A stretch of 64,000 bases of DNA from an uncultured Candidatus Peribacteria bacterium (GCA_964418415.1 CAYQLB010000003.1:12618-76617), one strand, 5' to 3'. Positions 41,501-61,611 are shown, numbered from the stretch's first letter. The notes: a model not told the origin generated them from the sequence alone. Numbers and translations are program-made.

Positions 41501-41631
41501 TGTGCTAACAAAGCGATACTAAAAGGCGTTCTTTTCACCTTCTAAGTATACTCGGCAAACCACCAGAAGCAAAAAAAGAACCTTTTCTTCTACTATTTAA
41601 GGTTGACAAATAAAAAAATATCTATTAGTTG

Positions 41632-41660
41632 TTGACTTATATGTTTAATTTTATATAAGA
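41632..41660 (+). promoter_or_regulatory. sigma70-like promoter (TTGACT .. TATAAG)
   Basis: ttgacttatatgtttaattttatataaga lies ~20 nt upstream of ATG 41679. Confidence 0.45.
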
Positions 41661-41678
41661 ATAAAAAAAATACACCCC

Positions 41679-42188
41679 ATGAAAACAAAAGAAGAAATAC
41701 ATGTGTACCTACAAAAATTCGAAGCCAACAGGAAACGATTGATGCGGGCATTCCTTACTGTGATAACTATCGCGATCGGTTGTGGAGTACTCTTATGCTT
41801 TGCTCCGAATTGGATAGTGATATCCTTGTGTGTATGTTATGCCACTTTCAGTTTAGGTTTCGGGATATTTCCTGCTATAGAACATCTGAATATGGAGTGG
41901 GAAGCAACGAAAAATAGAAATACTCGTTTGAATAAACGGCATGCGTTGGAGTATTTCGAAAAGCAGTATCGCAATAAGGAATACGATTTTTCCTCGTTTC
42001 AGTCCATACCTTCGGAACTGCAGGATATCTCACACCTTCTGATCAACAATCCTAAAAAATCATTCCAGGAGATGGTTGAGATAATCACCACATCCATGGA
42101 AGAGGATGAAATATATGCTACCATCTGTACAGAGGCAAAAGAGCGGACCTTATGGCAATATTTCAGAAGTGGTAAGTGGATCAGATAA
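41679..42188 (+). CDS. small membrane protein, TGA-free, higher G+C
   Basis: 169 aa intact in both codes, with a TAA stop. It has a two-helix hydrophobic core, its own promoter and a hairpin-rich 3' region. Confidence 0.6.
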   Translation: MKTKEEIHVYLQKFEANRKRLMRAFLTVITIAIGCGVLLCFAPNWIVISLCVCYATFSLGFGIFPAIEHLNMEWEATKNRNTRLNKRHALEYFEKQYRNKEYDFSSFQSIPSELQDISHLLINNPKKSFQEMVEIITTSMEEDEIYATICTEAKERTLWQYFRSGKWIR

Positions 42189-42245
42189 CATCCCTCTTAT
42201 CAATCTTCGATCCTTCGGTATTCCGGAGGATTTTTTTAAACTATA

Positions 42246-42275
42246 TTGACTTTATAAAGTAAATATATATAAAAG
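42246..42275 (+). promoter_or_regulatory. conserved promoter cassette TTGACTTTATAAAGTAAATATATATAAAAG
   Basis: Nearly identical to 43904-43933 and related to 49693-49722. It lies ~25 nt upstream of ATG 42298. Confidence 0.5.
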
Positions 42276-42297
42276 TAAAAATTAAAAAAAAAGAAAA

Positions 42298-42648
42298 ATG
42301 AAAAAATTTGTAGTTTTATGTATTGTAGTAATGATGATTGCTATTGTTGGATGTGTAAACAATACATCCAAGTCAGCTGTTCAAAATGAGCAAACCGTAA
42401 AGACGGCCGATGGTATAAAAAATTACGGTAATGGTGTGTATTATTTCGACTATACCAAAAGTAATTTTGGAGAACAATTATCTTTATTTATCGGACAACA
42501 TCCAGAATTACGTATGGTGTCTTTTGCTCCTTATAACGCTGGGTCAATTGCACTTCCAAGCGGTGGAACAGATGGTTACTTTGTAAAATTTGAAAAAACA
42601 ACCTCTTGTCCTTGTGACACTATCAAAAAATGAAAAAACAATATCTAA
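42298..42648 (+). CDS. lipoprotein (lipobox IVGC)
   Basis: MKKFVVLCIVVMMIAIVGC. No internal TGA. The standard-code stop TGA 42631 becomes Gly, which adds 5 codons up to TAA 42646. Confidence 0.6.
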
Positions 42649-42732
42649 TATTTCCCTGGGTTTTCCCTGGGTTTTTTTAATTGAGACCCAATAAAAATCC
42701 GAGATGAAATAAGGTTTTTTATAAGGTCGAAA

Positions 42733-43848
42733 TTATACAATACTTTGAGCCATCCGATCGATTTTGAATCCTTTTTTTGCAAGGTTCAATTTGGTGAAAA
42801 CGATATCCATAAATTGTCTGACATTCGGTCATTTCAAAATAATATTGTATCTATATTTTCCAAACATTTTATAAATCAACGGAGGAGTGGAGTAAATTTC
42901 TATATCTTTCAACTGATATTTTTCTTTCAAATAGAGAAGATCTTTATGTAAGGTATCGACCTTCGTATACAAACTTTCTTCAATCTCATTCTTATATAAA
43001 ATTACACATAATTCCCCAAAGGGCGGATATCCATTCGTTTTTCTGAAGATATTATCTTCTTCGTAAAATTTTTCTTTACTCATTCTGCACGCATTACGAA
43101 TACTATAGTGATCGGGGTTAAACGATTGTACAATAAAACTTCCCGTTTGGTGTTTTATAAATGTTTCATACAGAAAATAGAAATTTCTTTCTGCTGATGT
43201 GTAATCGGGAATATTTAATCACAAATCTGCATTCAAAAAAATAACAAGGTCGAAATCATATCATTGTATAGGTGTGGCGAGTAATGATGTTCAAATAATT
43301 ATAGGGTTGCTCTGTAAAGTCTTAAAGTCCAAGGTCTGTAAGGTCGAATCTTCTGACTTTATGGGCTTTTGACATGATAGACTTTCGACTAATCTTTTGA
43401 TTTTATTAGGAGAATTTACAGTTTCAGACTCGATAATCAGCGAGTCTTTTCCGTATTCATTTTTCAAAAATTCAGCGACCTTTTGTGTTCAAAGTCAAAA
43501 TTCTTTGATTTTTTTTCCATGACAAGCAGGGCAGTTCATTGGTACTGAATATTGCGTTTTACAAATATGACAGAGTCCGATAGTCTCTCAGGATGGTATT
43601 TTATGATAACTAATACTGACATCGCAGTTCTTGCATTTTGGGATATGTCCGCAGTCGTGGCAGATGATTCATCAGGAGTAGCCTTTCTTGTTGACAAGGA
43701 TTCAGATTTTTTTTCCTTGCTTGAGATATTTTTCTATTCATTGTAAGGCTAATTGGGAAAAGTGCGGAGTGAGCTCCTTGGTCATATTTACCAGGAAGAT
43801 GGACTTCTTGGTACCTTGTATGTCGTGATCAAAACGTTCGTAATTCAT
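42733..43848 (-). CDS. priA: PriA-like protein, C-terminal half only (Zn-finger insert, helicase C-lobe, CTD); no Walker A/DEAH lobe
   Basis: ICHDCGHIPKCKNCDVSISYH..CHICKTQYSVPMNCPACHG (Cys-rich region), GTQKVAEFL, IIIGTSLLATPIQGYDFDLVIFLNADLGLNIPDY, GYPPF, MFGKYRYNIILKG. Upstream there is an in-frame TAA at 43912-43914 and no room for the N-terminal ~400 aa. Confidence 0.7.
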
Positions 43849-43903
43849 ACATAATATGGTACGTATTGGAAAAGCGGAAAAAAGTCTAAGTCATAAGGTG
43901 AGA

Positions 43904-43933
43904 TTGACTTTTTATAGTAAATATATATAAGAA
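43904..43933 (+). promoter_or_regulatory. conserved promoter cassette TTGACTTTTTATAGTAAATATATATAAGA
   Basis: Lies ~25 nt upstream of ATG 43957 and is near-identical to the cassette at 42246. Confidence 0.5.
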
Positions 43934-43956
43934 TGGTATTTATTTTTCATATTTTC

Positions 43957-45444
43957 ATGGGAGAATCATTCAATAAAACATTTGAAAGACATATGAAAAA
44001 ATTAGAAAAAAAAGCTCAAGCATATTGTCTCGAATGACCATACGCTCATTTTATCGTAACGCCGGAATGTATCAAAACATACAAGAAAGAATTGATGAAT
44101 ATTTTTCAGATGCCAAAGCATACTATCCAAGGACTACAATCCGAAAACTTTTATCATATCATAGCTGATACCGATGACTATCCAATCATAGATAGACCGT
44201 ATTCCAACATTGTGAATCAAATTATCAAAGGAGAAGATAAAGATAATCCCTATTCGGTACTTACAGAAGTTGCTCCATTCTATAAAAAACTGGCGGGATT
44301 GCTCCAATATGGTGTAGATATTCAACCGATAGATAAGCATACCATCTATGTTCATCATCATAATCGTTTAGTACATAGTTTCGATACAGCGTGCAATATC
44401 GAACTCATTATGAGAAATAATGGATTCTCTGAAGAAGATATTAAAAAAGCAGTAATTGCTTGATGTTTGCATGATGTTGCTACACCATCTTTCGGTGATT
44501 TGACGATGAAAGCTTTTCCTCAATTAAAAGAAGAACAATGATTTTCCGTATATATGGCTCATTATCCAGAAATATCTGAGTATATAGAAAAACATTTTAC
44601 TGTTTCATTAGAAGATCTACAATCTTGGATCAAAAATGAAGGCATAGTAGGCAAAATTATTGATATAGCGGATAGATTAGCATACACCGCAAGGGATGTA
44701 TCTGCTATCGGCAATGGTATGTTTCTTGGAGATGATGATTCAAAATTGATGTATGGGAAAGCTGCACAAAAAATCATCAAAAAAGATCCTACGGTATTCG
44801 ATATTATTATGGAGATTACTGTCAAAGATGGTCAGATAGTATTCGAAAATCCAGAAAGATTGGAAAATGTCATGACCGTAAGAGCTAATATGCATAATTT
44901 TATTTATCTCAATCCATATTTACGAACGAGAGAGGAATATTTCGGTTTGATGCTTCAATATCTCGTAGAAGAAGAATATTTGACCTTGGAACAATTACAA
45001 AAATGAGCGACCGATCAATGATTACCTATCAACGAATTCGTTATCGAAGCATATTGTAATAAAGGTATTCTCGATTACAATCCTGTGACGACATATGAAT
45101 TTTTTGATACGCATATGTATGATACTAAAGAAGAGGCGATATCGGATATAGAGACACTTAAACAACAATTTGGTCCTCATGTTCCTGTACATTATCTCAA
45201 GACACCACCATTCAAACCGGGAACACATTATCTCACGAGACATGAAGGACAGGTGAAGCCGTTAGCAGAGGTTATGGATTCCAAAGCATTACAAGAACTA
45301 CAAAAACTTTCTAAAGCGACTGATAAATATCTGGTACTCTATCCCAAAAAAGAGTTTCACGAAAGATATAAGAAATATCCAAAATTATATGCATTCTTGT
45401 GTAGAAAAGCAGATGAAGCGTATCAGGATTTATTAAAAATATAA
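43957..45444 (+). CDS. HD-domain phosphohydrolase, dNTP triphosphohydrolase (Dgt/SAMHD1)-like
   Basis: HHHNRLVHSFDTA.., AGCLHDVATPSFGD (HD motif; the G before C is TGA), IADRLAYTARDVS. Track ORFs 44092, 44554 and 45085 share one frame. Confidence 0.7.
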
Positions 45445-45806
45445 TGATGGAACAGCAGAGTATTAGAGAAATATCTATCAAAAAATTTAATGGCAGAATC
45501 CCTATTACGAGTGATCTTTTTGAGGTATTAAAAAACGAAGATGTGGTGTTTCTATATCACAGAAAAAACGAAGTGCATATTATGAATAAAATAAGATATG
45601 TCGAACTTTTGCAAGATACTAAGAAAAAAAGCTGACATCCAGATGGATGGTTCGATTGGACAACAGAAGGTAGAGATTATATGCGCAAATTATGTGCTTG
45701 CGCTTGTTCGATAGCGGTCAACAAAAGGTATATGGCTCTGGAATGAGGCGATAGATTGAAAAAAAAATTACTCTGACAAGAACTGAAGATAAAGATATTT
45801 TCCTAA
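45444..45806 (+). CDS. small hypothetical protein, start overlaps the upstream stop (TAATG)
   Basis: 63 aa up to TGA 45633. Under TGA=Gly it runs through two hairpins to TAA 45804 and abuts the dus stop. Confidence 0.4.
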
Positions 45807-46817
45807 TTACGTAAAAAACTCCTGAATCGCTTTGACGAGCGGTGTGTATTCTATGATACTGCTCAATTTCTGCTTCAGATCCTTGGATCATGGGATTCAT
45901 TTGAGATATTGAAATAAGTGTTTTCTGAATTCTACGACGACCATCTGCGGTACATTTTTTTTTGACATTCTCGGCGTATTCGGCATTTCCAATATACCAT
46001 TAAATATTTTTTTTTGTTTTTGAAAAAACTGTTCATAAGCGACAGTATAGTTTAGATGTTTCAGTATCGTTTCTTTGATTTCTTCTCTATTTGGTATATG
46101 TGGGGTAAAGATTCGTGGGTTTCCGATAGCAGCTTGTCCGATCATGATTCCGTCAAGATTTCACTTTACTGTTTCGATATCTTCGTACTGCTTAATTCCC
46201 CCATTTCCGATAATGATACATTTTTTGTTCGCTTGTTTTTTTAATTCGTAAATGAATTTCCAATCCACATCGCCTGAATAGATTTGTTTGGTTGATCTGC
46301 CGTGCACGGAGATCATATCCACATAATTGCTCGCTTCGATAAGGAATTTCATTTGTTCGTTTCTGTCTTTTTCATGAAGTCCTATTCTTGTCTTGATGCT
46401 AAATGGCATTTTCACTGCTTTGTGTAATACTTTCAATATTTCCAAAGATTTTTTTCTGTCCTTCATCAACGCGCTTCCTCATCAGGTGTTCATCACATTC
46501 CTCGCCGGACAACCCATATTCAATTCGATATACGAAAAGACTTTCTTATACTTTTTTTCTATATCCTTGAAGCATTTGGTCAGCATCTTTTCATCCGATC
46601 AGAAAATCTGCATCGTTACATTCTTTTGATCTTTGTCCGTCAAAAGGTGTTTCGCGACGCCGATGGGATTGATGACGTAACCGTCTGCATTCATAAATTC
46701 GGTCCGAAGTCATAATTCATATATGTTCTTTTCTCAATATTTGTCAAAAACTTCTTTCACGATCTGGCGGAAAGCACAATCCGTATATCCATCCATAGGA
46801 GCGAGACCCAATAACAT
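45807..46817 (-). CDS. dus: tRNA-dihydrouridine synthase
   Basis: LAPMDGYTDCAFRQI, IELNMGCPA, SIKTRIG, ISVHGRS, IIGNGGI, DGIMIGQAAIGNP. Confidence 0.9.
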
Positions 46818-46838
46818 AATTAAGAATTAAGAATTAAG

Positions 46839-46869
46839 TTCCGGCTGCAAGACTTAACGCCGGAATGAC
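46839..46869 (+). repeat. 31-bp REP-like hairpin element (copy 2 of 3)
   Basis: ttccggctgcaagacttaacgccggaatgac. The same element occurs at 1996-2026 and 63643-63673. Confidence 0.85.
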
Positions 46870-46971
46870 GAAAATTAGAATGTAGGATTAAGAATTAATG
46901 TAATGAAAGTATAGAAAATTTCCAGCCGGAAAAAACATTGTTTTTGTGTTTATAAAGTGTATAGGTCTGAT

Positions 46972-47715
46972 ATGTCTAAATTACGTCGAAAGATTAACAA
47001 TTTTTTTTGGAAGCTGGAAGGACGATTAAGATCGTCACTGTTTTTTCTATTCATTTTTTCTCTATTTCTTTTATTTCAATATAAATGGCAGAATCCTGGA
47101 ATGACCCCACTCATGCCGATTAGATTTGTAGATCAAATCATAGATAAAAGGCAGATAGTACTCAAACACACCCGGGTGCCAATCGAACAGATTTCCAATA
47201 ATATGATTTACGGTGTCATTGCTTGAGAGGATCAGAGGTATCTTGAACATCGAGGGATAGATATGGAGGCACTACGAGCTGCTTTGAAAAAAAATATCAA
47301 ACATCAGTCATTGAGTATTGGTGGGAGTACTATCACCCAACAGACAGCGAAGAATCTCTTTCTCCGGCCAGATCGTTCACTCTTCAGAAAAGCCATAGAG
47401 TTCTATTTCGCTATTATGATGGAGCTTTTATGGAGTAAAGAAAGAATTATGGAAATCTATCTCAATATTATAGAATTCTGAGATTGAATATATGGAGTCG
47501 AACAAGCTGCACAATATTACTTCGACAAACACGCAGCAGATCTTACACAGAGCCAAGCGAGTTTCCTTGTTGCTATTATGCCGAATCCGAGATATTACCA
47601 GCTCCACAAATATAATGGATGGATATCTTTCAGAAAAGGAGTCATTAATAGAGCTATCTCTAGTATGAAAAGGAATAAGGAAATGAAAATATTTGTAGAA
47701 GCAACAAAAGAATAA
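46972..47715 (+). CDS. mtgA: monofunctional biosynthetic peptidoglycan transglycosylase
   Basis: [28 protein letters not shown][CGG], [39 protein letters not shown] 46972 (a GTG at 46957 is also possible), TAA 47713. Confidence 0.9.
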
Positions 47716-47775
47716 GTTGATAACGGATTCAGTATTCCTATAGTTTTTGTATTTTATTTTTTGTAAATTTCGTAT

Positions 47776-48396
47776 ATGTTCGAATTTTTGCATCCGCTTA
47801 TAGACCGATATATGGTTCATGTTAACTATCGAAGCATAGCTGCATTAATGACGATAGAAAGTTCCTTTATACCTTTTCCTTCAGAAGTGATAGTTCCTCC
47901 GGCATGATGGAAAGTCGCTCAAGGATTGCTCAATGGATGGTTAGTGATGCTATCTGCAACCATAGGAGCATTATTGGGGGCTTTGGTTAACTATTATTTG
48001 GCTCTACGATTGGGAAGAAAAATTATCTACAGACTTGCAAACACGCGTCGAGCACATATGATTTTTATTACCAATGAATCTATAGAAAAATCTGAAACAT
48101 ATTTTCGTAAACATGGTAAAATCTCCACTTTTATTGGACGTTTGATTCCAGCTATTCGCCAATTGATCTCTATTCCAGCAGGATTAGCGAAGATGAATAT
48201 GAAACAATTTATTCTCTATACTTGTTTGTGAGCATGAGTATGGAATCTCGTACTTTTTGTAGCTGGATACTTGCTTGGGCAACATCGAGATAAGGTAATC
48301 GAATATAATCATATTTTCAAAATCATTATATACGCAATTATAGCAGCTGTGATTGTGTATTTCATCCTTCGTTACGTTTTTCGCAGAAGGAAATAA
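47776..48396 (+). CDS. dedA: DedA family membrane protein
   Basis: IAALMTIESSFIPFPSEVIVPPAG, YFRKHGKISTFIGRLIPAIRQLISIPAG, LLGQH[CGA]DKV. Confidence 0.85.
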
Positions 48397-48434
48397 CTAT
48401 ATATATCATGCTGTTTTATCTTTAAGAGAATGTT

Positions 48435-49172
48435 ATGGACAAGAAAGATTCCTTGAAGAAATTATATGAGAAGAAATATTTCGATACGACCCCTCATGCG
48501 AGAAATAGTAGGGTGGCACCACAAACACCAGGGACAAAAGTTCTGGAGATTTTTGGTTTTAAAAAAGAATGAAACATCTATCCGGAATTCGAGAACAAGA
48601 ATGTGACGGATATCTGATGAGGTTTGAGTAATTTTGCTTTCGAGCTAGCGCCGAGCGTCAAGAAGATTATTGTGGTGGATCCTACCTATCAGTATGATCT
48701 CAAGCAATGTATGGAAGATCAACACCAGAAAGCAGAGAGAAGATTAGCAAAAACAGCGGAATTACAGACAACTTGCGAAAAAGATCTTACCGAGATATTG
48801 AGTCTCGAAAAAGAAGTAGCTGAATGAATAAAGAGATGGAAAAATAATCTTCTCAATCCAGATGCCAAAATAGAACTCAATGATTCGTTTGCCCAGAATA
48901 TAGTTGGTATACCTGACAACAGCCAGGATGCGGTATTCTTTAATTTTGTCTTACATACGCTTAATGATGATGGTCCTTTGGAAGAGGATGTGCTAGTTGC
49001 AGTGAAGAATGCATATCGCATCACAAAACTAGGAGGGAAGATTTATGGTATTCACGATTCCATTTCCAAAGAAGATGAAATTATCAATGCATTGAGCAAG
49101 ACGGACTATAAACGAGATGCATGGCACAAGGATAATAAGAAATACACAGTTTTTATTATAGATAAAGAATAA
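48435..49172 (+). CDS. class I SAM-dependent methyltransferase-like protein
   Basis: VTDIGGGLSNFAFELA (motif I), IIVVDP, AVFFNFVLHTL, KLGGKIYGI. Track ORFs 48624 and 48978 are in frame. Confidence 0.55.
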
Positions 49173-49175
49173 TCT

Positions 49176-49622
49176 ATGAATATCGTTATTCTCGAAAATA
49201 TCCGTTCCGCCTACAATGTGGGAAACATTATTCGTACTGCAGATGCACTTGGATGGCAGGTCCGATTGACGTGATATACACCATCTCCGGAAGATACACA
49301 GAAAGTTGTAAAGACATCATTGTGAGCTGAAAAGAATGTATGATTGAAACAATTTGATCATACGCCAGAGGCGATCAAATTTGCAAAGAAAGAGTGAATG
49401 ATTGTCATCGCTGCAGAAATCACTCAAAATTCAATTTCTTTGGATACTTTCAAAAAAACGACTTCTAATATCGCTATCATATTTGGTAACGAAGTCGATG
49501 GGGTACTCGATTCTACCTTAAAACTCGTTGATCATATAGTTCATATTCCGATGCAATGAGTGAAAGAATCACTCAATGTTGGCCAAACATCAGCTATTTT
49601 TATGCGAGAATTAAATAACTAA
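49176..49622 (+). CDS. SpoU/TrmH-family RNA 2'-O-methyltransferase
   Basis: ENIRSAYNVGNIIRTADALG, IIFGNEVDGV, IPMQGVKESLNVGQTSAI. Confidence 0.8.
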
Positions 49623-49692
49623 AAGACAGATTGGATGAGAGAGATGTAAGAGAATCTTATTTGTCTTTATTATCTCATCTATCTTTTTAATG

Positions 49693-49722
49693 TTGCTATT
49701 TTATAGGAAATATATATAGTAT
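49693..49722 (+). promoter_or_regulatory. promoter cassette variant TTGCTATTTTATAGGAAATATATATAGTAT
   Basis: Related to the cassettes at 42246 and 43904. It lies ~40 nt upstream of ATG 49759. Confidence 0.4.
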
Positions 49723-49758
49723 AAAAACAAAAAAACAAAATCTCTAATTAAAAATTTT

Positions 49759-50625
49759 ATGGAAGAAAAAAATGTGAAGTATCCAATTATTTTGGAAAAA
49801 CCAACCACGAGAGTGGTTGTAGAGTTCTTACTGAAGCAGTTTGGCATAAGAATTTCAGGAAGCACAAAAGTGTTTCTCTGTCAAAAAGAAACCTGCGAAG
49901 TGGACTTAGATGTCCCTGTGACCAATTACGGTGCAAATGCCGCATCAGAGCATTTTATCTGTGTTTTTTCTTTGGATAAGCAAAAAGGTATCGTACCTTT
50001 GCTGCCATTCAAGGAGATGTCAGAGAAACTTGTCTCCGGAAGCTGGCCCGAAGCAGACCAGACCATCAGAGATGTAGTGAAAGAATGTACCATTAAACCG
50101 GACTTCATAATCACCTATGGGAGATTACAGATGCCGAGCGGTATCAGTGAAATGTGTTGGTGTATCCATGAGGTTTTGCAAGACAACGAAAGTGGTATTT
50201 TCGACAGTAAAGCAACGGTCCCGGAAGTAGTCCAATTGTTCACGGAATATTTGTGGACATTAGCCAATTTGTCGAAGCTATCGCCTGAGACCGCAAAGAA
50301 ATCTTGCGATGAAATTGTGGATGAAAATGCCGAACCCGCAGAAATTGCTGATGTATTCAGAGTTGAGGATGTAGTTCTCTATGTTCTGAATCAGGTACCG
50401 TTTGAAAAGCAAAAGAAATTGTGTAAATGCTTTTGCCAAAAAAAGCCGGAGTTCGAAGAATATGCAGCCAAAATCGATGATTGGGACTCGAAAACATTGA
50501 GAACGTTTATACTTCAGCATGATGTGCTCAATCATTTTGAAAGCTATCGCGAAATGATTGTTGAAGCAATGCAGCAAATGATGCCCGATGAGGGGTTAAT
50601 AGACCCCATTGGCGACGAAGTATAA
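49759..50625 (+). CDS. hypothetical cytoplasmic protein (288 aa), TGA/CGA/CGG-free, higher G+C
   Basis: Uninterrupted in both codes, with its own promoter and a strong terminator. I recognise no motif. Confidence 0.6.
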   Translation: MEEKNVKYPIILEKPTTRVVVEFLLKQFGIRISGSTKVFLCQKETCEVDLDVPVTNYGANAASEHFICVFSLDKQKGIVPLLPFKEMSEKLVSGSWPEADQTIRDVVKECTIKPDFIITYGRLQMPSGISEMCWCIHEVLQDNESGIFDSKATVPEVVQLFTEYLWTLANLSKLSPETAKKSCDEIVDENAEPAEIADVFRVEDVVLYVLNQVPFEKQKKLCKCFCQKKPEFEEYAAKIDDWDSKTLRTFILQHDVLNHFESYREMIVEAMQQMMPDEGLIDPIGDEV

Positions 50626-50643
50626 TCAGAAGTATTTTACAAA

Positions 50644-50672
50644 AGTCCCGGTTGTTTGCCGGGATTTTTTTT
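50644..50672 (+). terminator. rho-independent terminator
   Basis: tcccgg ttgtttg ccggga followed by T8. Confidence 0.8.
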
Positions 50673-50708
50673 ATCATAGAAAAAGAGAACTATTATGGCG
50701 TATAAGAT

Positions 50709-51290
50709 TTATTGTATTTCGAAGGTTGAAATCATCTCATCTATGGTCTGTGCAAATTCATCAAAAGTAGATTGTAGTGCTGTATATGTTATAATATAGA
50801 CTATCTTATCTTTGATGATATAGATTGTTTCTTGCTGAAGTTTTGTGTCACCTTGGGTTAATGTATAGATAATCTTTTTTGCTTCGATGTTATTGATGGT
50901 GATAGTTTCATTACTCACTTCGGTATAATCAGGAAATATCTTGATAATATTTTGCTGATGATGTAGTGTAGAATAATCATCCAATGAATAGGATCTTTCT
51001 AGTTCTTTTTTTGCGATACCGACATTTTCTTTGAGAGTATCACCTTCGCCAAGGGGAGAGAGAAACATAACCAAAGATCCATAGACATTTTCTTCAAATG
51101 TCCGGGTATCAGGATATTGGAGAGTGAATTTATGAGAAGTGGCTTCGTAAGTCTGCCATGTAATAGTATCTTGTACATCTGTAGTGGTTACTTCCGTTAG
51201 AGATTGATTTTTTGTACATCCAAACATCACGAGGAGTGACGTAAATAAGACTAATGAGATGATTTTTTTCATGTATTTCTGTTTAAACAA
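50709..51290 (-). CDS. lipoprotein (lipobox MFGC)
   Basis: MFKQKYMKKIISLVLFTSLLVMFGCTKNQ. 193 aa, TAA stop at 50709. Confidence 0.65.
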   Translation of the reverse strand: MFKQKYMKKIISLVLFTSLLVMFGCTKNQSLTEVTTTDVQDTITWQTYEATSHKFTLQYPDTRTFEENVYGSLVMFLSPLGEGDTLKENVGIAKKELERSYSLDDYSTLHHQQNIIKIFPDYTEVSNETITINNIEAKKIIYTLTQGDTKLQQETIYIIKDKIVYIITYTALQSTFDEFAQTIDEMISTFEIQ

Positions 51291-51308
51291 TAAAAAGTAA
51301 ACGAGGTA

Positions 51309-52106: not shown

Positions 52107-52159
52107 ACTAAAAAACTATAATTTTAAATTTCTAATTTTTAATTTCTAAAACCTAAAAG

Positions 52160-53161: not shown

Positions 53162-53169
53162 ACTTTCAA

Positions 53170-53247
53170 AACAATTTTAAATTTTCAATTTCTAATTTCT
53201 AAACATAAGAATATGTTTGAAAATTGAAAATTAGAAATTAGAAATTA
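53170..53247. repeat. AT-rich imperfect inverted repeat built from aattttMaattt / agaaatt units
   Basis: caattttaaattttcaatttctaatttctaaacata agaa tatgtttgaaaattgaaaattagaaattagaaatt, between two minus-strand genes. Confidence 0.8.
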
Positions 53248-55416
53248 CTCCTTTTTGAGTCGTTCCTGGTAATTCTGCCATGCCGTGAGATCCGAATTTT
53301 TGATTGTTGCTAACGGATCTATGACAAAAGAATTTATAGTGTTTTGGTGTTCATCATCAAGCGGTAAATTGAGATTCTGTATGATATATGGAGTAGTGTT
53401 AGCCAGAATATCTTTGAAATATAAAGGTCAAAGAGTGTTTGTACTTAGCGTATAGTTTGCTATAAAATTGATAGTACCGATACTAAAATCAACGAAGATT
53501 TTACCCTCTTGATCAGCAATATCATTTGCTTTGATTCCGAGATATTGCTGTATTTTTTCAAAAACAACAATAGCATTGGTTGTTCCTTCATGGGTTTGAG
53601 TAGGTTTCTTATATTTAAGGATAGCTTTGATGATGTCTTCCAATGAAGAACTATTGGCAACAATTTCGCTGTAAGAAGTTTTGATTGAATTTTCCAATGC
53701 TGTATCAGAAGAAGTGATATTCTCAAGTCAACCATCTTTAAACGTAAAGGTGTAACGGATAGATTTTTGTTCTATGGTAGTACCTGTATTGGTGCAAGAA
53801 TGAATGATAAGTGTTTTTATTTCATTCAATGATGGACAAAGATCGCTGGATGCAGAGACAGGTGCGTTTTCTTGCTCATAGAAAACAAGATTTTTGGAAA
53901 TATAACTATAGAGCTCTCCTATAGAAAAGTCTTTGATGAGGAGAAGATTCTTGATGACATCATTGATTTCCGCTCTATTCTGGAGATTGATGCTTTTGAT
54001 CAAAAGCATATCATTCGTATAGGTCATGATGATGTGTGTTTTGATAGTTTCATTACTTTCTGGCGAAAAGAACTTAAGATAACCAATAATATCAATGGTA
54101 TCTATAGATATACTCTTTTTTTCGATAGTGAGATAAGATAGTGCTTTAAGTTTTTTATTGATTTTATCTTCCATACTCATGATTGCAGTAGTTCCTGTAC
54201 TATTGTTTTTTTGTGTAAGCAATGCTGTATTGTGTATCTCGCTATTTAGTCACGAAAAACCAAGCATAGGTTCTCATTCATTGATCGTTTTGATAGCAGT
54301 GAGTAATCATGCTATTTTACTACTTCCCAAATTTTGGGTAAAGATTGTGGTTTGGTAAGCTGCCTTTTCAAGTGATAGAGAAAGATATTTGTTATTATAT
54401 CGATAGATTTCATCTTTGTAGAATGGAGCAATACTATCTTTCTGGAGAATTTCTCTTACAAAATCTAAATATATGTTTATTTTGTAGGTATCAATTTTGT
54501 TGATGAGGAAATCCTGATAAAGTTGTTGTTGATAAGAAAGGAGTTTGTATTCATTGAGTAGGGGATCCTTATAGCTGAGTTTTTCAAATGATTGATTTTC
54601 TAATCCACGTTGAATCTCCATAAAAAGCGTTGTTCTTTTGAAAATATCAAAATATTGATCTCAGCAAAGGGTAAATAAGTTTTCTATGATAGTACTTTGA
54701 TCGTTGGAATAGAGAAGATATTTAGATAATCCATCACAGAATTGAGTTTTATTTGTTGTATTGTTTTTGATGGCACCGAAAACATTTTGAAGTCCAGTAT
54801 AGTCCTTGGAAATCATATAAACGAAAAAGCTGTCTAAGAAATTGTCTAGATAATAGTCGCAAGTTTTTTTGGAGAGTTTGCTTTCGAAAATACAGGAAAG
54901 ATTGAAACTCTCTATTATATCTTTTGTAAGTGGTAATTGTACACGAGTAAATGGCTTATTAATAGTGATTTTTTTGGTGAAAATGAATGTATTGATAAAA
55001 TTTTCTAGTTCTTCTATATCATATTCGCTTCCAGAAAAATAGGTTATATGCTTGATAGGAAGTGTACTATAGAAGTAAAAATATCTCGGTATGACAAATC
55101 ATTTATAACTAATGAGATTATTGACGGATTTTATAAATCATTCTTCGGTCTGAAAATCTCATTGAAGGATATGGATATCTATGTCGTTATTCTTGATATT
55201 TTGTTTCATGAATTTACTGAATTCTGCAATGAGTTTCGTCTTTTCAATTAATAAAGAATCATCTCCTTGAAATACGACTACGCGTGTTGATTTGGAGAGA
55301 ATACTTTGAAAAAGGAAAAATCCTACGATGATGGCAACGAAAAAAATAAGATAGTGAAAGAAAAATCTAGATATACCTTTGTAGGTGGTTATGATTTTTG
55401 TTTTTTGTTCTTCCAT
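53245..55416 (-). CDS. hypothetical membrane-anchored protein (723 aa)
   Basis: N-terminal anchor FFFHYLIFFVAIIVGFFLF. Track ORFs 53428, 53728, 54307 and 55159 share one frame. I checked the gap 54900-55160 codon by codon. No motif recognised. Confidence 0.65.
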
Positions 55417-55653
55417 ATATAAGAATCTTTGGATAAAGGGGTATTTATAGGAGTAAGTATACTGTTTTTGGCTTCATTTGTCAACGTTAATGCGAAGATA
55501 GAGAACGAATACCACTATGTCTTGAAGTACCTAAATATTCAGAACAATAAGTTTTTATGTGAAAATTGTCAATAATGCCCTTGCAATTAGTGCGTTTTTT
55601 TTTATACAGCGGGTGCGTTAATCGTATTTTTTATATAATAAAGCTATAGTACT

Positions 55654-55860
55654 ATGAAGAAATTACTTACTCTAGCAGCTCTTGTAGCTGGTGTAGCTCT
55701 TTTCGCTGGATGCATGAATAAACCAGTAGAAGAAGAAACTATCGTAGAAGAGACACCAGTAGTAGAAGAAGTTACAACTGAAGAAGTAACTCCTGCAGTA
55801 GAAGAAACTACTACAGAAACTACTACAGAAGAAGCAGCTCCAGAAGCTACAGCAGAATAA
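55654..55860 (+). CDS. small acidic lipoprotein (lipobox FAGC, E/T/V-rich tail)
   Basis: MKKLLTLAALVAGVALFAGCMNKP followed by EETxVEE low-complexity sequence. TAA stop, then a terminator. Confidence 0.6.
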   Translation: MKKLLTLAALVAGVALFAGCMNKPVEEETIVEETPVVEEVTTEEVTPAVEETTTETTTEEAAPEATAE

Positions 55861-55902
55861 TTCCCTACATAGATAGGTTGAAATCCTCTGTAAAACAACT
55901 AA

Positions 55903-55927
55903 AAAGAGTCGAAAGACTCTTTTTTTA
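55903..55927 (+). terminator. rho-independent terminator
   Basis: aagagtc gaaa gactctt followed by a T-run. Confidence 0.75.
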
Positions 55928-55941
55928 TATACATAATAAAC

Positions 55942-56625
55942 ATGCGTTTAACTGCTTACATCCAAAGTAACCATCAGATATCCCGTAGAGCTTTTGTTGA
56001 TATGATCAAACACGGCTATGTTTTGGTGAATACCAAAAAAGTAGAATCATATGCAGAGGAGGTCAAATCAGGTGATATTGTTGAAATTACCGCACCCAAT
56101 TTTAAACTCAAGGATACAGTAAAAGGAGAAAAAACAAGTTCGACTATCATCCTGTTTAATAAACCAAAAGGATATGTTACTTCCAAATCTGATCCACACA
56201 ATGAAACAATTTACGATATTTTACCACCGGAATTTAAAAAATATTATTATATCTGAAGACTGGACAAAGATTCTCATTGACTACTTCTTTTGACCGATGA
56301 TCCAGGATTGGTCAATTCTTATGAGCATCCCAAAAACGGTATCGAAAAAGAGTACGACATCGAGTTAGACAAAGACCTTGCTCCAAGAGATCGTATTCAG
56401 GCAATCCAGGGAGTGAAGGATGGAGAAGATATGTTGAAAGCACTCAAAATTATCCAGATAAAAAGATATCACTTTAGAGTGTTATTGAACGAAGGAAAAA
56501 AGCGCCACATTCGCAGATTATTTCAAGTGTTATGATATCATGTCTTGGATTTACAGAGGATACGTGAAGGACAATATAGATTAGATAATATCAGGATCGG
56601 AGAACGGAGAATTGTAGGAAAATAA
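55942..56625 (+). CDS. RsuA/RluB-family rRNA pseudouridine synthase (S4 domain + catalytic domain)
   Basis: YYIGRLDKDSHGLLLLTDD (catalytic Asp box; two of its Gly are TGA), EKEYDIE, EGKKRHIRRLF, IGE[CGG]RIV. Confidence 0.85.
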
Positions 56626-56630
56626 AAAAA

Positions 56631-56651
56631 ACTGCTGGAAAATCCAGCAGT
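56631..56651. terminator. hairpin terminator shared by convergent genes
   Basis: ctgctgga aaa tccagcag with an A8 run on the plus side, which is a T-run for the minus-strand gene. Confidence 0.7.
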
Positions 56652-56670
56652 AATAATGAAGATAATAATA

Positions 56671-57159
56671 TTATTTCCTTGTTTTCAGGTGTTCACTAAC
56701 AGCATGCATCAATGTATTTAACTCACTCGTTTCTGAGCAGAGTCTCTTGGGGATGCTGAGAGGACGAGTTCCTCCCATAAATGACCAAGTACCCTGATAT
56801 TCGAGTGTGCTTTGACCTTCGATATGGATACAGGATCCTTTGGGGATTCCTTTGTAGTCCTCAGTCGTCCAGACTTCTTTGGGTAAAGAAGCAGTAGAAT
56901 TATTATCTTGATGTTTTAGAACTTCTGCTTGGAATCTTTCATAAAATTCCGTCAGGATATTGGCCTCATTTTTTCCTTGTGCCCGATTGGAAATCGTAGT
57001 TATCCTATTGGATAGCGTATGGTACGATGGATCAGATTCCGCGAGCTTTTGCATCATTTTTTTGAGACTAAGGAGCTCTGATTTACTGATATAGGTCTGC
57101 TTCATGATCTTTGCGAGAAACGTAGCAGCATTATCAAAAAAAGAATTGTTCGTTTTCAT
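56671..57159 (-). CDS. hypothetical protein (162 aa), TGA-free, higher G+C
   Basis: Intact in both codes, TAA stop, own terminator. No motif recognised. Confidence 0.55.
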   Translation of the reverse strand: MKTNNSFFDNAATFLAKIMKQTYISKSELLSLKKMMQKLAESDPSYHTLSNRITTISNRAQGKNEANILTEFYERFQAEVLKHQDNNSTASLPKEVWTTEDYKGIPKGSCIHIEGQSTLEYQGTWSFMGGTRPLSIPKRLCSETSELNTLMHAVSEHLKTRK

Positions 57160-57201
57160 ACTATTTTGTTTTTGGATGAGTATATGAGATTTTTATTTTG
57201 C

Positions 57202-59877
57202 TTATTTTAGTTCGTCTTTGATTTTGTCTAAAATTTGTAATGCTTGCAGAGGAGTGATATTGTTGAGATCGTAGGTGTCGAGCAGTGATTTCAATTTCTC
57301 GTATTTTATTCAATATTCGGGATTTGGTGAAAGGTCGAAGGTCGAAGGTAGAAGATTCTTATTTTTGTTGCCTTGTCCCTTGTCCCTTGTCCCTTTTTCC
57401 TGTTCAAGTTCATTTAAATGCCCTTTTGCTCTTTCTACTATTGTAGCAGGAATACCCGCTAATTTAGCGACATCGAGACCATAGCTTTTATTGGCTCATC
57501 ATTTCACTATTTTTTTCATGAAGATAACTTCTTTATCGGTTTCATAGACACTTACGGAATAGTTTTTCACACCCGGGTGTGTTTCTTCCAACTGAATCAA
57601 CTCATGATAATGAGTTGCTATCAATGTTTTCGCTTTGATAGTGATGACGAGATATTCTAAGATTGCTTTGGTCAATGCGAGACCATCATAGGTCGCTGTT
57701 CCACGACCTAATTCGTCGAAAATAATGAAACTATTTTTCGTCGCATTATTCAAAATATTTGCAACTTCAATCATTTCTGTCATGAAGGTAGATTGATTTT
57801 TTGCAATATTATCTCCGCTTCCTATACGCGCAAATAATGCATCCATCAGCGGAAGCTGACATTCCTTCGCCGGTACGAATAATCCACAATGCGCCATCAA
57901 GACGATCAATGCATTCTGTCTGAGATAGGTCGATTTACCTCACATATTCGGTCCTGTAATTATATGGAGAAATCAGTTGTCTGTAGTGGTTCATCATGTA
58001 TCATGTATCATATATCATGCATCAAGCTGTAAGTCATTTGGTATAAACTGCTGATCGCGTGGTAAAAATTCTTCGATAACCGGATGTCTTCCTTCGATGA
58101 TATGTAGTGTATCGTTTTTCACAAACAGTGGTTTGATATATTTCTTTTCCTGTGCTAATATCGCTTGCGAAACGAAAAGATCCAATTGTGAAATCTTCTC
58201 AGCAAATTCGTGCAATTGTTTCATATTATCGTGTATCTTTGTTTTTGCTTGCTCGAGGAATTCGTATTCCATCTTACTCAAAATATCTTTTGCTTCCAAT
58301 ATCTTTCATTCCAAATTCTCAAGATACGGAGAAGAATATCTCTGACCTCACTTCAGCGTATTCCTACGAACTATTTCAAACTTTCCATCTCATTCTCCAT
58401 TCTCAATTTTAAATTTTCAATTAATATTTTTTTCGAAATTTTCTATGTCTTTATTCGTTACTTCCAAAAAATATCCTTGATTTAGTACATACTTTACTTT
58501 GACGGTCGGTATGCCTGCGGCTTGTGCCAATTCTTGCTGGTATTGTAAAAGTAGTTCATCACTATGATAAGCAATTTTTCTGAGTTCATCTATTTTTTCA
58601 TGGTATCCATCACGGATATAGTCGATATCGTTTTTGTATTCTTCATCGTTTTTCAAAAGCTGTTCCAAATAATTATACAGATGCTGGAGATAATTATTAC
58701 TTACTTCAGTCAATCATAATATTTTCAATTCATCGAGCAAAAATGTATTTTCGAAGAAAATTCTCAGGGTTGATCTAAGTTTGATAAAGGTATTTGGTAA
58801 TAGTTTTTTGTATAATATCGTTGTTACGAGTTTTGGTATATCGCGTACATTACATAGAAAATGGTGAATGTTTTTGCTTTTTTCTTGGTCAGAAAAATAT
58901 TTCTCTATCATATCCAATCTTCGCTGTAACTGCTCAAGATTTTTGATAGGATTCGTAAGTGTATGGTGGAGAAGTCTAGAACCACCAGCTGTTTGTGTAG
59001 TATTCAAAATATGGAAGAGACTATATTTTTCACTTCATTCATAACTTGAAGATAATAATTCCAGATTTTTAATCGTGACTTCATCCAGGATGAGATACGT
59101 ATCCTGTGAATGAAAGGAGATTTTCGTAATATTGGTCAGTGAAGATTTTTGGGTATGGTTCAGATAGGAAAATAATAGGGCTATCGTTGCTAATCTACCG
59201 TTCTCGAGCGCTTTTCCATAGCTTGAAATCTGTTGAACTCCCGTTATTCATGAGATAAATTTTTCTGGATCTGGTGGAATATCCCATATCGAAATCAATG
59301 CTTTCATAGCTTGTTGTACGGGTACGGAGATACTTTCTTTTTCAGGAAAATCGATGTCAAAGACTAATTCAACAGGTTTAACCGCGATGATAAATTTCTG
59401 TAGTTCTTGGATATCTGAAAAGCTTTTGGTTCGGTATTCACCGACACTAAAATCTCATCGAGCAAGATGATAACTATTTCCGTTGGTATACGGGATAAAG
59501 GTCATTGCCATCGTATAAGTATACGATTTTTTTGCTTCTTGGATATAGGTTCATGGAGTGATGATACGTACGACTTCTCTTTCCACTATTTTTCCGGGGA
59601 TAGGTTCGCTCGTCTGTTCGGCGATAGCGACTTTATAGCCATTATTGATTAATTTCGTAATATATTTGTCGGCACTATGGTAGGGAATGCCAGCCATGGG
59701 GACGGAATTCTCTGAATTTTTATTCTTGCTCGTGAGGACAATATCGAGCACTTTACTGCAGATTTTTGCGTCTTCAAAGAAGGTTTCATAAAAATCTCCC
59801 ATACGAAAAAATAAGATACAATCTTCATGTTCTTTTTTGATATCAAGATACTGGATAATCGCTGGAGTAAATGCCAA
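57202..59877 (-). CDS. mutS: DNA mismatch repair protein MutS
   Basis: [49 protein letters not shown] (TGA 57940-57942 = Gly), [35 protein letters not shown]. Five track ORFs share one frame. I checked the tail codon by codon to TAA 57202. Confidence 0.95.
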
Positions 59878-59907
59878 AACTAAGAATCAAAATGACTAAA
59901 ATTCTGA

Positions 59908-60011
59908 CTCCCTTTGTAAAAGGGAGAAACCCGAAGGGGAGAAGGATTTAAGTCGTAGACACGAAATCCTCCATCCGCATCGGCGGATACCTCCTCCTTT
60001 TATAAAGGAGG
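59908..60011 (+). repeat. ~105-nt five-helix structured element, copy B
   Basis: Same architecture as copy A with different stem sequences: ctccctt/aagggag, ccc/ggg, gaaggattt/aaatcctcc, atccgc/gcggat and cctccttt/aaaggagg. Confidence 0.75.
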
Positions 60012-60168
60012 ACAATAGCTATCTCTAATATTTGTATAAATTAGTTTTTAAAATTCAACTATAAATAAAAATTACAATTTGTCTGTTAATTCTATATAAA
60101 GTATTGAAAATGTAAAGTATTTGAGTATAAGTAAGCAAAATAAAAATATAAACGTAAAATTAATAATT

Positions 60169-60540
60169 ATGAAAGAAATAGATATTTTAAAAAAAATTTG
60201 CGAAAGATTTGATTCTAATGATAAAAACTCTTTTGAATCATGTAATGTGGATGATTTATTGAATTTTATTTTGGAAGATGAGTCCATTGAAATACAATCA
60301 ATAAATGAACTTCCAAAAAAATGTAGATTACTCGTACACAGGCGATTATCTTGTGAGTCATATCTTACGATAACAAACCAACCTGCCTATACTACTGGTG
60401 AAAATGGTAAAGAATATTTATATATTCGTATAAATCCAAAAAACCAAACTACAGAATATTATTATGTATATAAAAAATTTCACAAAGAAGACTGATTATC
60501 TATTCCCAAGAGCTGCCTTGCATTAAGGCGGCTTTTTTAA
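60169..60540 (+). CDS. small hypothetical protein
   Basis: ATG 60169. The standard-code stop TGA 60493 sits directly before a terminator hairpin. Under TGA=Gly it reads through the hairpin to TAA 60538. Confidence 0.45.
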
Positions 60541-60582
60541 AAATTCTACAATACTTTAAGTTTTTTCCCCATCTCAATTAAA

Positions 60583-60612
60583 AAAAACTCCGGATATACC
60601 GGAGATTTTTTT
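60583..60612. terminator. bidirectional rho-independent terminator
   Basis: A7 ctccgg atata ccggag a T8. Confidence 0.8.
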
Positions 60613-60624
60613 TGTAACAAATAA

Positions 60625-61452
60625 TTAGCTGAAGGTACCATACCTTCCTGTTTCTTTTGTTTTGGTTAGGATTACTGGTTGAGCGTAAGTATCTATACTC
60701 AACAATGTTTCGATATTCTGTTTGACAACACTGGGAATTTTTCCCGGATCGACTTCGATGACAAGAGCATCAGCATTTTTCGCTGAATACTTACAAAAAT
60801 GTTTTGCAAAATTTTTTGTTTTTCTGGCAGTTTCTATAGTATAGTTAATACCATATTTCTGCAGGTGTTTGGTCGTATTGTCTTTGACCTTGTAGATAAT
60901 AAATTGTTCATCCGTGTTTTTGGTTTCAGCATTTTCGACGAAGATATGTATCGTTGCATCAAATGCTTTGGCAAGCATATACACGGTATTGAGTTTTTGT
61001 ACTTTTCTTTCGCCGTCCACAGCAATGGTGATGCGTTTTAACGGAGTAAATACTGCGTTATTCGGCAGAAGAATCGTAGGAATGGTCATATTCTGCGGAG
61101 TAGTCCAAGCGGTTTTTCCAAAAAAGAGGAGAGATGATCTATCCAAGGTCATGACAATAAATGCTGCACGTTCTTGTTCAGCAATATCTTGGATGGATGA
61201 GAAGATACTGAGAGGATTAATCTTGAGTTTAGAGATACGGACCTCTGTAGTAGAAATCTTCCTTGCGGCATTGATGACTCTACGAAAGGGGAGAGCACTC
61301 ATTTTGCCATCTCTTTTGGGATAGAGTACGACGGGCATTCCTAAATGATTTGCCAAGTTTGTAGCATATTTCGCTACAGTTTTTTGTTGAGTGTAGGTGT
61401 TTGCAAGATCGATTATCGCAAACAAGGTTTTTTGTGAATAGGTTTTCGTCAT
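60625..61452 (-). CDS. tandem universal stress protein (UspA-like) domains, TGA-free, higher G+C
   Basis: MTKTYSQKTLFAIIDL.., a second module ITIAVDGERKV..ADALVIEVD. TAA stop at 60625. The in-frame upstream ATG 61536 seems less likely. Confidence 0.65.
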   Translation of the reverse strand: MTKTYSQKTLFAIIDLANTYTQQKTVAKYATNLANHLGMPVVLYPKRDGKMSALPFRRVINAARKISTTEVRISKLKINPLSIFSSIQDIAEQERAAFIVMTLDRSSLLFFGKTAWTTPQNMTIPTILLPNNAVFTPLKRITIAVDGERKVQKLNTVYMLAKAFDATIHIFVENAETKNTDEQFIIYKVKDNTTKHLQKYGINYTIETARKTKNFAKHFCKYSAKNADALVIEVDPGKIPSVVKQNIETLLSIDTYAQPVILTKTKETGRYGTFS

Positions 61453-61611
61453 TTTTGTTATATATTTTGGTTTGGAGGAAGACCATAAGTATTTCATAAA
61501 TAAAGTCAAGTCCAAAATATCAGGAAGAGTCATCAAAACTTTGAAAAATCAGCATTCCGGGATATACTTATATTGTGGTGCGAGGATTTACTTCAGAATT
61601 ATGAAGAATAT

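Follow-up and report, generated by a model that had tools for sequence, protein, structure and literature searches.

Can a minority of the genes on a bacterial chromosome evolve as though the standard genetic code still applied to them, when the rest of that chromosome uses another? The question is raised by five single genes, called islets g1 to g5 here, which lie between positions 41,501 and 61,611 of a 64,000-nucleotide stretch of DNA (the window) from an uncultured Candidatus Peribacteria bacterium (GCA_964418415.1, CAYQLB010000003.1:12618-76617). A preliminary description of the window had seen in them TGA-free genes of raised G+C, wedged between housekeeping genes in which TGA encodes part of the glycines, and had proposed that they were acquired from standard-code donors, possibly the host. 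We find that a TGA-free gene class exists, that its trait persists through speciation, and that its genes are not recent imports. Judging from sequence comparisons, it is fairly probable that the islets are resident, clade-specific accessory genes belonging to this class, which would be kept readable in the standard code by purifying selection.

Genetic code of the genome and the TGA-free class

The window corresponds to positions 12618-76617 of contig C3 in an assembly (G000 hereafter) of 1.04 Mb, 48 contigs and 34% G+C. Genes were called under code 25 with our own greedy procedure, which retains the longest open reading frame (ORF), and 977 genes covering 89% of the sequence were obtained; in the window, long ORFs appear only with TGA as sense. 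TGA represents 27% of Gly codons genome-wide and 30% in clearly native genes, so that the earlier estimate of about one native glycine in six was too low. The genome encodes a tRNA-Gly(UCA), and its CGN box is served by tRNA(GCG), tRNA(UCG) and tRNA(CCG). The reassignment of UGA to Gly in this group is reportedly associated with the name of Campbell et al. 2013. That of CGA and CGG (together CGR) to Trp in Absconditabacteria is described in the part of Shulgina and Eddy (2021, eLife, PMC8629427) on which we draw. When mutS, pilB and two more housekeeping genes were aligned between the window and 11 congeners (12 genomes), CGR codons fell in a column with Trp in 189 cases and with Arg in 3. On this alignment evidence the native genes of the genus obey a code with TGA = Gly and CGR = Trp, in agreement with that part of PMC8629427. 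Parsed by hand, tRNA(UCG) (G1:U72 and G73) and tRNA(CCG) display G73, A1:U72 or G1:U72, and no A20, which are the Trp-identity criteria given there, and both CGR-reading tRNAs look Trp-type in their sequences. tRNA(GCG) is the Arg decoder, and a set that includes UCG and CCG matches the known Absconditabacteria reassignment. The acceptor stem of tRNA(CCG) is nearly that of tRNA-Trp(CCA), suggesting that the former arose by duplication of a Trp tRNA.

In-frame TGA is absent from g1, g3, g4 and g5, as had been claimed, and occurs once in g2, at 42631. There it is read through to a TAA at 42648, five codons before which it lies, so that g2 really ends at 42648; the coordinates first proposed for the other four genes stand. 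In orthologues of g2 the tail varies or is missing. Together, the five islets carry 1 TGA among 41 Gly codons (P = 6e-6) and, with their orthologues, 4 among 177 (nominal P = 1e-22 at the native rate), while neighbouring genes are near 30%; by family, the counts are 0/24 for g1, 0/44 for g4 and 3/53 for g2, the remaining figure being 1/56. Trp codons are also affected: the 1038 codons of the five genes include 12 TGG and 5 CGR, against about 4.8 and 7.8 expected from native genes (P = 0.004). The TGA deficit and the Trp codons thus bear out the view that the islets differ in coding from their neighbours and look standard-code. They are not, however, the only intact long ORFs in that code, as had been stated, since 50709-51290(-) and 55644-55898(-) are TGA-free as well. 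In the region, 5 TGA-free genes of at least 100 amino acids (aa) are found where 1.8 are expected (P = 0.03).

The composition check shows no clear departure of the islets from the range of the genome. From g1 to g5, G+C is 0.396, 0.330, 0.414, 0.401 and 0.376, for a gene mean of 0.344 and a standard deviation (sd) of 0.038, which corresponds to z-scores of -0.4 to +1.8; G+C at third codon positions (GC3) is 0.44, 0.24, 0.44, 0.40 and 0.37, for a genome value of 0.307 (sd 0.069). In composition, three islets rank at the 92nd to 97th percentiles and a further one at the 84th, and the fifth ranks under the median. Neither in codon usage (distances at the 23rd-86th percentile) nor in tetranucleotides (46th-92nd) do the islets leave the normal range. 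The raised G+C of the preliminary description is therefore present in g1, g3 and g4 (0.396-0.414), mild in g5 and absent from g2, and all five values lie within about 2 sd.

Genome-wide, 34 genes of at least 200 aa are TGA-free where about 5 are expected: 17 versus 4.3 between 200 and 300 aa, 11 versus 0.6 between 300 and 500 aa, and 6 versus 0.1 above 500 aa. The excess of long TGA-free genes remains after correction for GC3, with which TGA use falls (from 0.43 to 0.20 per Gly codon across genes as GC3 rises). Per 1000 codons, TGA-free genes contain 11.4 TGG and 5.0 CGR, TGA-containing genes 4.5 and 7.25, and the genome as a whole 5.3 and 7.4. The Trp-like totals of the two gene sets agree only if CGR is not Trp in the class, in which case the Trp of the class would all be TGG. 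A class log-likelihood ratio (LLR) above 3 sets apart 56 genes, or about 6% of the total. Its G+C is 0.375 versus 0.342 and its tetranucleotide usage is more deviant, a modest shift overall. Of the window genes with 100 aa or more, only g1, g3, g4, g5 and the lipoprotein gene at 50709 score positively; in the rest of the window, two 84-aa ORFs are weakly positive, g2 scores -1.3 and all others score -3 to -249. The class members to which a name could be given are purH, purA, guaB, purB, pyrF, prs and fabH, then a PhoH/PIN protein, a flotillin-like protein and two proteins that bear sorting tails of the type IX secretion system (T9SS). Pfam supports the last four names and PDB matches support purA and purH; the others come from reading of the sequence.

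Transcription signals also mark the class. Terminator-like hairpins number 27 in 41500-61499, for 9.4 expected, and the best five each lie directly 3' of an islet, which confirms the GC-rich terminator ascribed to each of these genes. A strong terminator is present within 80 nt of 39% of class genes, versus 10% of others (P = 1e-11). Promoters of the TTGACT-N16/17-TATAxT type precede g1, g2 and g5, and a variant, TTGCTA-N16-TATAGT, precedes g3; g4, which follows mutS after 42 nt, lacks its own promoter, so that the sigma70-like promoters announced for all five are found for four. An upstream TTGACT is present in 14 of 36 class genes and in 7 of 343 native genes. Because some native genes are driven by it too, the islet promoter type is the organism's own. 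A sharp promoter consensus, TTGACTTTT-N8-AAATATATATA(R)T, seen at 43904-43931 of the window and genome-wide, is highly enriched upstream of TGA-free genes; it also serves a few native genes, and mutS in congeners. Upstream of the class, neither Shine-Dalgarno sequences (4% versus 2%, not significant) nor the Bacteroidota-type motif TAnnTTTG were enriched.

Distribution, slots and persistence of the trait

Relatives were searched for in 41 genomes, comprising same-genus congeners and 16 other genera of the taxonomic class. Homologues of g4 and g5 are each present in 11 of 24 congeners, those of g1 and g2 in 4 each and those of g3 in 2; none was found in the 16 other genera. In 5.8 billion proteins, g3 has 3 matches, g5 has 6 and g4 has 7, and a g3 profile retrieved 6 matches in an exhaustive search of 1.84 billion representatives, while g1 has no match in 301 genomes of the phylum. 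All 7 database matches of g4 are in a mutS/rluB context, and contigs fetched for three of the database matches to the islets show the arrangements pilB-(g5)-mutS-(g4)-rluB and SpoU methylase-(g3); where genes on these contigs had been called with code 11, mutS is broken into pieces and the islet gene stays whole. Every examined islet homologue lies within one genus-level Absconditabacterales clade, in the same slots, and the search for nearest neighbours outside the clade, which had been put forward as a check, found none.

These slots are virB4/priA, trmH/lipoprotein, rluB/mutS and mutS/pilB. Across 16 syntenic loci, backbone genes are 60 to 90% identical, whereas islet genes are 35 to 65% identical, absent, or swapped for other small genes. 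The mutS/pilB site is empty in two congeners (G003 and G006), and in two loci (L042 and L043, from G001 and G019) it holds a g4-like gene in place of g5. Because of this patchy occupancy we regard the islet sites as variable accessory slots, and the presence/absence polymorphism anticipated by the preliminary description does exist, with orthologues in the same slots elsewhere. The g3 orthologue of G017, for instance, occupies the same slot and is 38% identical and TGA-free, with a CGG where Arg is invariant. An origin by contamination or in chimeric contigs was considered and rejected, as the junctions between native and TGA-free sequence recur across many independent assemblies. Housekeeping genes flank the islets, with no viral neighbour, and the slots of the window contain no integrase, transposase or tRNA. 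Scans of IMG/VR with g3 and g5 profiles found no relatives, and PHROGs gave two marginal matches only (E about 1e-3), to families without a known function. On another contig (L082:6757-7170, JGI contig Ga0502773_0001239), a g4 homologue is separated from rluB by a gene for a Y1 transposase (PF01797), so that mobile DNA does enter such slots.

Among the members of the class, purA is present in 9 of 17 genera of the taxonomic class; across 18 genomes, its roughly 800 Gly codons include 2 TGA. Its CGR codons share a column with Arg in 503 cases and with Trp in none, and its Trp columns use TGG in 62 of 64 cases. At invariant Arg columns, CGR alternates with AGA, CGT and CGC between congeners; one of these columns is the Arg of the motif GATTGRxRRTGW, aligned to the same motif in adenylosuccinate synthetase (PDB 3hid). 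In purH, 2 of 4 CGR codons align with Lys of the Campylobacter enzyme. In the g5 family, CGR columns are shared with Lys 24 times, with Arg 22 times, also with Asn, His and Gln, and with Trp 0 times, and all 9 sequences have TGG at the conserved Trp column. The few CGR codons of the g3 and g4 families likewise lie at Arg columns, where a CGG of g4 aligns with Arg in two orthologues.

The trait has persisted while the codons themselves turned over. At conserved Gly columns of housekeeping genes, the probability among congeners of TGA given TGA is 0.54 and that of TGA given GGN 0.17, a fast TGA turnover. Between G000 and G008, the protein divergence of the guaB-purA pair equals that of its native flanks. 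In the pair, 34 of 78 Gly columns show different codons, with TGA involved in none of the 34; in the flanks, 51 of 100 do so, with TGA involved in 21 (P about 1e-8 for the pair behaving like its flanks). In four species (G007, G008, G010 and G015), g5 proteins are as similar (0.80-0.91) as those of mutS (0.78-0.87), with codon differences at identical residues of 0.29-0.38 for g5 and 0.39-0.51 for mutS, and the CGR codons of g5 exchange with CGT, CGC, AGA, AAA, CAA and CAT, as codons for Arg would be expected to do. Base composition has followed the resident genome: the G+C of purA correlates with that of its flanks (r = 0.89, 17 genomes), and the G+C of islet orthologues matches that of their own flanks, so that the raised G+C of three islets is peculiar to this genome.

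Competing explanations

How could such a class be maintained? A very improbable answer is chance, by which short, Gly-poor genes would happen to be without TGA. Each islet has only 5-10 Gly codons, and a lone TGA-free gene could indeed arise in this way, as had been noted from the start (P = 0.16-0.41 per gene, given Gly count and GC3). Chance is contradicted, though, by the 4 TGA among 177 Gly codons of the families, by the genome-wide surplus of long TGA-free genes, and by three independent correlates, namely TGG usage, terminators and the promoter motif. Translational selection is a less remote but still improbable alternative. Highly expressed stand-alone genes might shun codons read by scarce or error-prone tRNAs (tRNA-Gly-UCA, tRNA-Trp-UCG/CCG), and the strong consensus promoters and terminators, the drop of TGA with rising GC3 and the lower TGA content of ribosomal proteins (about 18% of Gly codons, none in S9, S4, S10 and L24) all point that way. 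However, TGA is used in EF-G (19 of 66 Gly codons), enolase (4/40), RpoC (16/95), FtsZ (3/42) and L2 (11/31), and since EF-G, enolase, RpoC and L2 use it, expression level as the sole cause is rejected. Moreover, enzymes of nucleotide salvage and orphan membrane proteins are not evident candidates for the highest expression, and avoidance cannot yield CGR codons that are used, and turn over, at invariant Arg positions of purA and g5.

Horizontal acquisition from standard-code donors (prey, host or phage), recurring into the same slots and with a code not yet adapted, deserves more attention, although we consider it unlikely. It would account for the higher G+C and more deviant tetranucleotide usage of the class, for the slots that are empty in some species, and for the Y1 transposase beside one g4 homologue. 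The two TGA-free proteins with a T9SS sorting domain (PF18962), which we take to be a hallmark of Bacteroidota, would fit as well. Alleles of guaB and purA are 42 to 88% identical among congeners whose flanks are 65 to 90% identical, and for g5 the identity is 35 to 39% between G000 and a cluster that reaches about 80% in mutS. Phages compatible with code 11 are also known for these bacteria (PMC10746230). Nevertheless, no homologue of g1, g3, g4 or g5 was found outside the clade, in viral contigs or in PHROGs; the database homologues are all in the same Absconditabacterales slots; a purA scan of genome contigs found three close relatives only, so that no donor can be named; and the promoters are of native type. 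Both purA and the islet orthologues follow the resident genome in G+C, the divergence of g5 keeps pace with that of mutS in four species, and guaB-purA has undergone synonymous turnover like its flanks without any gain of TGA. The recent acquisition from a standard-code donor or host that the preliminary description proposed is thus not supported, composition being within range and homologues confined to the clade and to the same slots. The divergence has two levels, equal to that of the flanks within a cluster, with identity far below theirs between clusters, which suggests that the occupant of a slot is occasionally replaced by a divergent allele. Replacement alone is insufficient because of the G000/G008 comparison and the co-divergence of g5 and mutS; both replacement and selection may act on these sequences, with some contribution from horizontal flow.

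We therefore return to purifying selection on resident genes as the favoured reading. Each islet is a stand-alone unit in a variable slot between conserved housekeeping genes, four with a native-type promoter and all with a strong terminator. The class encodes Gly without TGA and Trp by TGG, with CGR absent or at Arg positions, in a genome in which TGA otherwise makes up about 30% of Gly codons and most Trp is CGR. From the substitution patterns we infer that selection acts against the reassigned codon meanings in class genes specifically. It is conceivable, if rather unlikely, that class messages are at some stage decoded without the reassigned tRNAs, for example amid decoding factors of the prey or host. 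In its strongest and, in our opinion, doubtful form, the proposal would place two genetic codes on one chromosome: in about 6% of genes (islets, purA, guaB, purH, T9SS-tail proteins) CGR would be Arg and TGA = Gly would not be needed, while in the others CGR would be Trp and TGA Gly. If true, this requires a message- or stage-specific decoding (for example with prey factors taken up while feeding), or translation in a standard-code host.

Several observations weigh against selection on resident genes. No Arg-type tRNA for CGR was found in the genome, so that correct synthesis of the class proteins lacks an explanation; Arg at essential purA positions is a paradox, because the visible CGR decoders all look Trp-type. 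Statements on decoding derive entirely from substitution patterns, and gene calls from our own greedy ORF caller. The islets of the window offer few informative codons: g3 and g5 are without CGR, and in g1 one CGR column falls opposite Trp in three orthologues. Per islet, the absence of TGA is compatible with chance at the probabilities given above, and the binomial P values ignore the shared ancestry of orthologues and are hence too small. Finally, the divergence between species clusters points to replacement and so speaks for horizontal flow. Between these clusters, islets, purA and guaB are 35 to 50% identical and the flanks 65 to 90%; the purA of G000 is 42% identical to the copy of G024, whose flanks are 67 to 75% identical; and, by eye, the G000 purA resembles that of Yersinia and E. 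coli roughly as much as it does that of certain congeners.

Codon reassignment is usually considered to apply to an entire genome and to stand in the way of gene exchange. Here, a minority of resident genes evolves as under the standard code, for both reassigned codon sets and across speciation. Either a hidden constraint exists on the codons allowed per gene, or decoding is not uniform in the cell or life cycle. Gene calling and code inference (of the Codetta type) with one code per genome would mistranslate one gene class or the other, and TGA or CGR content is no clock for the residence time of foreign genes in this lineage.

The class may be compared with known systems. Amelioration, the concept for horizontally acquired islands reportedly due to Lawrence and Ochman, offers one comparison: like un-ameliorated islands, it has a codon usage off that of the host genome, a patchy distribution and variable slots. 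Unlike them, its base composition tracks the genome, its synonymous turnover never yields TGA, and no donor was found. In the Streptomyces bldA/TTA regulon, the regulated genes contain a rare codon whose meaning is unchanged. There too a gene set is marked by the presence or absence of one codon of a special tRNA, which could couple translation to physiological state; in our case the special codons are absent, and CGR seems to differ in meaning between gene sets. In contrast to the present analysis, one code was inferred per genome in PMC8629427 and, reportedly, by Campbell et al. 2013, and no minority class of standard-code-like genes is mentioned in the part of PMC8629427 consulted. A further parallel is with the code-11/code-25-compatible phages predicted for Gracilibacteria and Absconditabacteria (Liu et al. 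2023, mBio, PMC10746230). As in the islets, genes tied to bacteria with TGA = Gly are TGA-free and read the same in both codes, and the authors argue that the state is retained, not recent. The islets differ in being chromosomal, scattered as single units at fixed slots, without viral neighbours or homologues, and in that the signal of their class extends to the CGR reassignment, which is not addressed in that paper.

The five genes and neighbouring features

Table 1. Islet genes, predicted signals and one adjacent gene, in window coordinates
Feature	Position	Strand	Description
g1 promoter	41632..41659	+	TTGACT-N17-TATATAAG, pattern match; motif also upstream of g1 orthologues in L038
g1	41679..42188	+	169-aa membrane protein, clade-specific; 0 TGA/5 Gly codons, 4 TGG, 4 CGA/CGG; LLR +3.1
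g1 terminator	42209..42232	+	intrinsic, 10-bp stem and T-run
g2 promoter	42246..42275	+	TTGACT-N17-TATATA, pattern match
g2	42298..42648	+	116-aa lipoprotein, MKK...AIVGC lipobox; TGA at 42631; G+C 0.33; LLR -1.3, ambiguous class
g2 terminator	42655..42671	+	intrinsic
g3 promoter	49693..49720	+	TTGCTA-N16-TATAGT; identical sequence upstream of G017 orthologue
g3	49759..50625	+	288-aa Cys-rich orphan; 0 TGA, 0 CGA/CGG, 4 TGG; G+C 0.414; LLR +5.7
g3 terminator	50641..50669	+	strongest of the region, 12-bp stem; bidirectional, common to 50709-51290(-)
PsbP_2/DcrB-like lipoprotein gene	50709..51290	-	TGA-free; in all congeners, 38-55% identity; LLR +1.6
g4 terminator	56631..56651	-	intrinsic; equivalent hairpins 3' of orthologues
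g4	56671..57159	-	162-aa two-module orphan; 0 TGA/7 Gly codons; LLR +3.0
g5 terminator	60588..60604	-	bidirectional, common to ORF 60121-60540(+)
g5	60625..61452	-	275-aa protein, predicted divergent tandem universal stress protein (USP) fold; 0 TGA, 0 CGA/CGG, 2 TGG
g5 promoter	61482..61509	-	TTGACT-N16-TATGGT, 57 nt upstream of ATG 61452; kept upstream of G009 and G012 orthologues

Pfam gave nothing usable for the five islet proteins (Table 1). The products guessed earlier are retained for g1 (membrane protein), g2 (lipoprotein) and, on the basis of a model, g5 (tandem USP fold), whereas g3 and g4 are orphans. The start of g5 at ATG 61452 fits homologues of 271-284 aa and leaves space for the promoter. 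Its AlphaFold2 (AF2) model (pLDDT 80.6) contains two USP-like alpha/beta domains, and the top Foldseek matches are the tandem USPs 3cis, 3mt0, 3ab7 and 5cb0, along with 7mq5, the best including Rv2623, PA1789, TTHA0350 and UspE, with E = 4e-8, a TM score of about 0.6 and 11 to 15% identity. The modelled g5 is thus predicted to be a very divergent tandem USP fold. It shares the two-domain fold of Rv2623, TTHA0350 and UspE, but differs from them in its low identity, in having no Pfam family at E < 0.01 and hence no Usp (PF00582) match, and in that the usual ATP motif, G-x2-G-x9-G(S/T), is not evident when judged by eye.

The AF2 model of g3 is poor (pLDDT 49) and unfit as a query for structure searches. 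With neither TGA nor CGR, g3 reads alike in both codes. The lipobox of g2 is MKKFVVLCIVVMMIAIVGC in the window gene, and the hydrophobic leader and Cys, as read from the sequence, are kept in four orthologues. The g4 family is built of modules: in some congeners, the N-terminal and the C-terminal half are separate genes.

No Rfam RNA gene was found within 41000-64000. ORF 55644-55898(-), between a 756-aa gene and rluB, encodes 84 aa rich in Ser, Val and Thr, is TGA-free, and has 37 to 86% identity at the same place in congeners, with no Rfam match; it may be a genuine small protein, or be conserved for another reason. ORF 60121-60540(+), in the mutS/pilB slot, has 139 aa, 26% G+C and one TGA, and no homologue at 16 congener loci; it may be a young or a spurious gene.

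Outside the window, gene C7:34871-36181 of G000 (436 aa, 35 Gly codons) has a lone TGA five codons before its end, which may be a former stop that is now read through. The idea that such codons are fossil stops in general was not retained: single-TGA genes with the TGA in the last 10 codons number 10 for 5.4 expected, a weak excess, and ordinary stop-codon mutation fits g2 equally well. The two TGA-free proteins ending in PF18962 are encoded at C15:21059-22600 and C17:18130-19584 of G000. This domain occurs 1 to 5 times in each of 22 of the 24 congeners, in 1 of 16 other genera and in 0 of 14 control genomes. To our knowledge, a T9SS is not expected in a bacterium of the candidate phyla radiation, and no search for the system was made here. 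The guaB-purA pair, at C27:5788-10316 of G000, is syntenic across the genus and far more divergent than its flanks; TGA-free itself, it adjoins a native IMPDH-like paralogue that contains 19 TGA.

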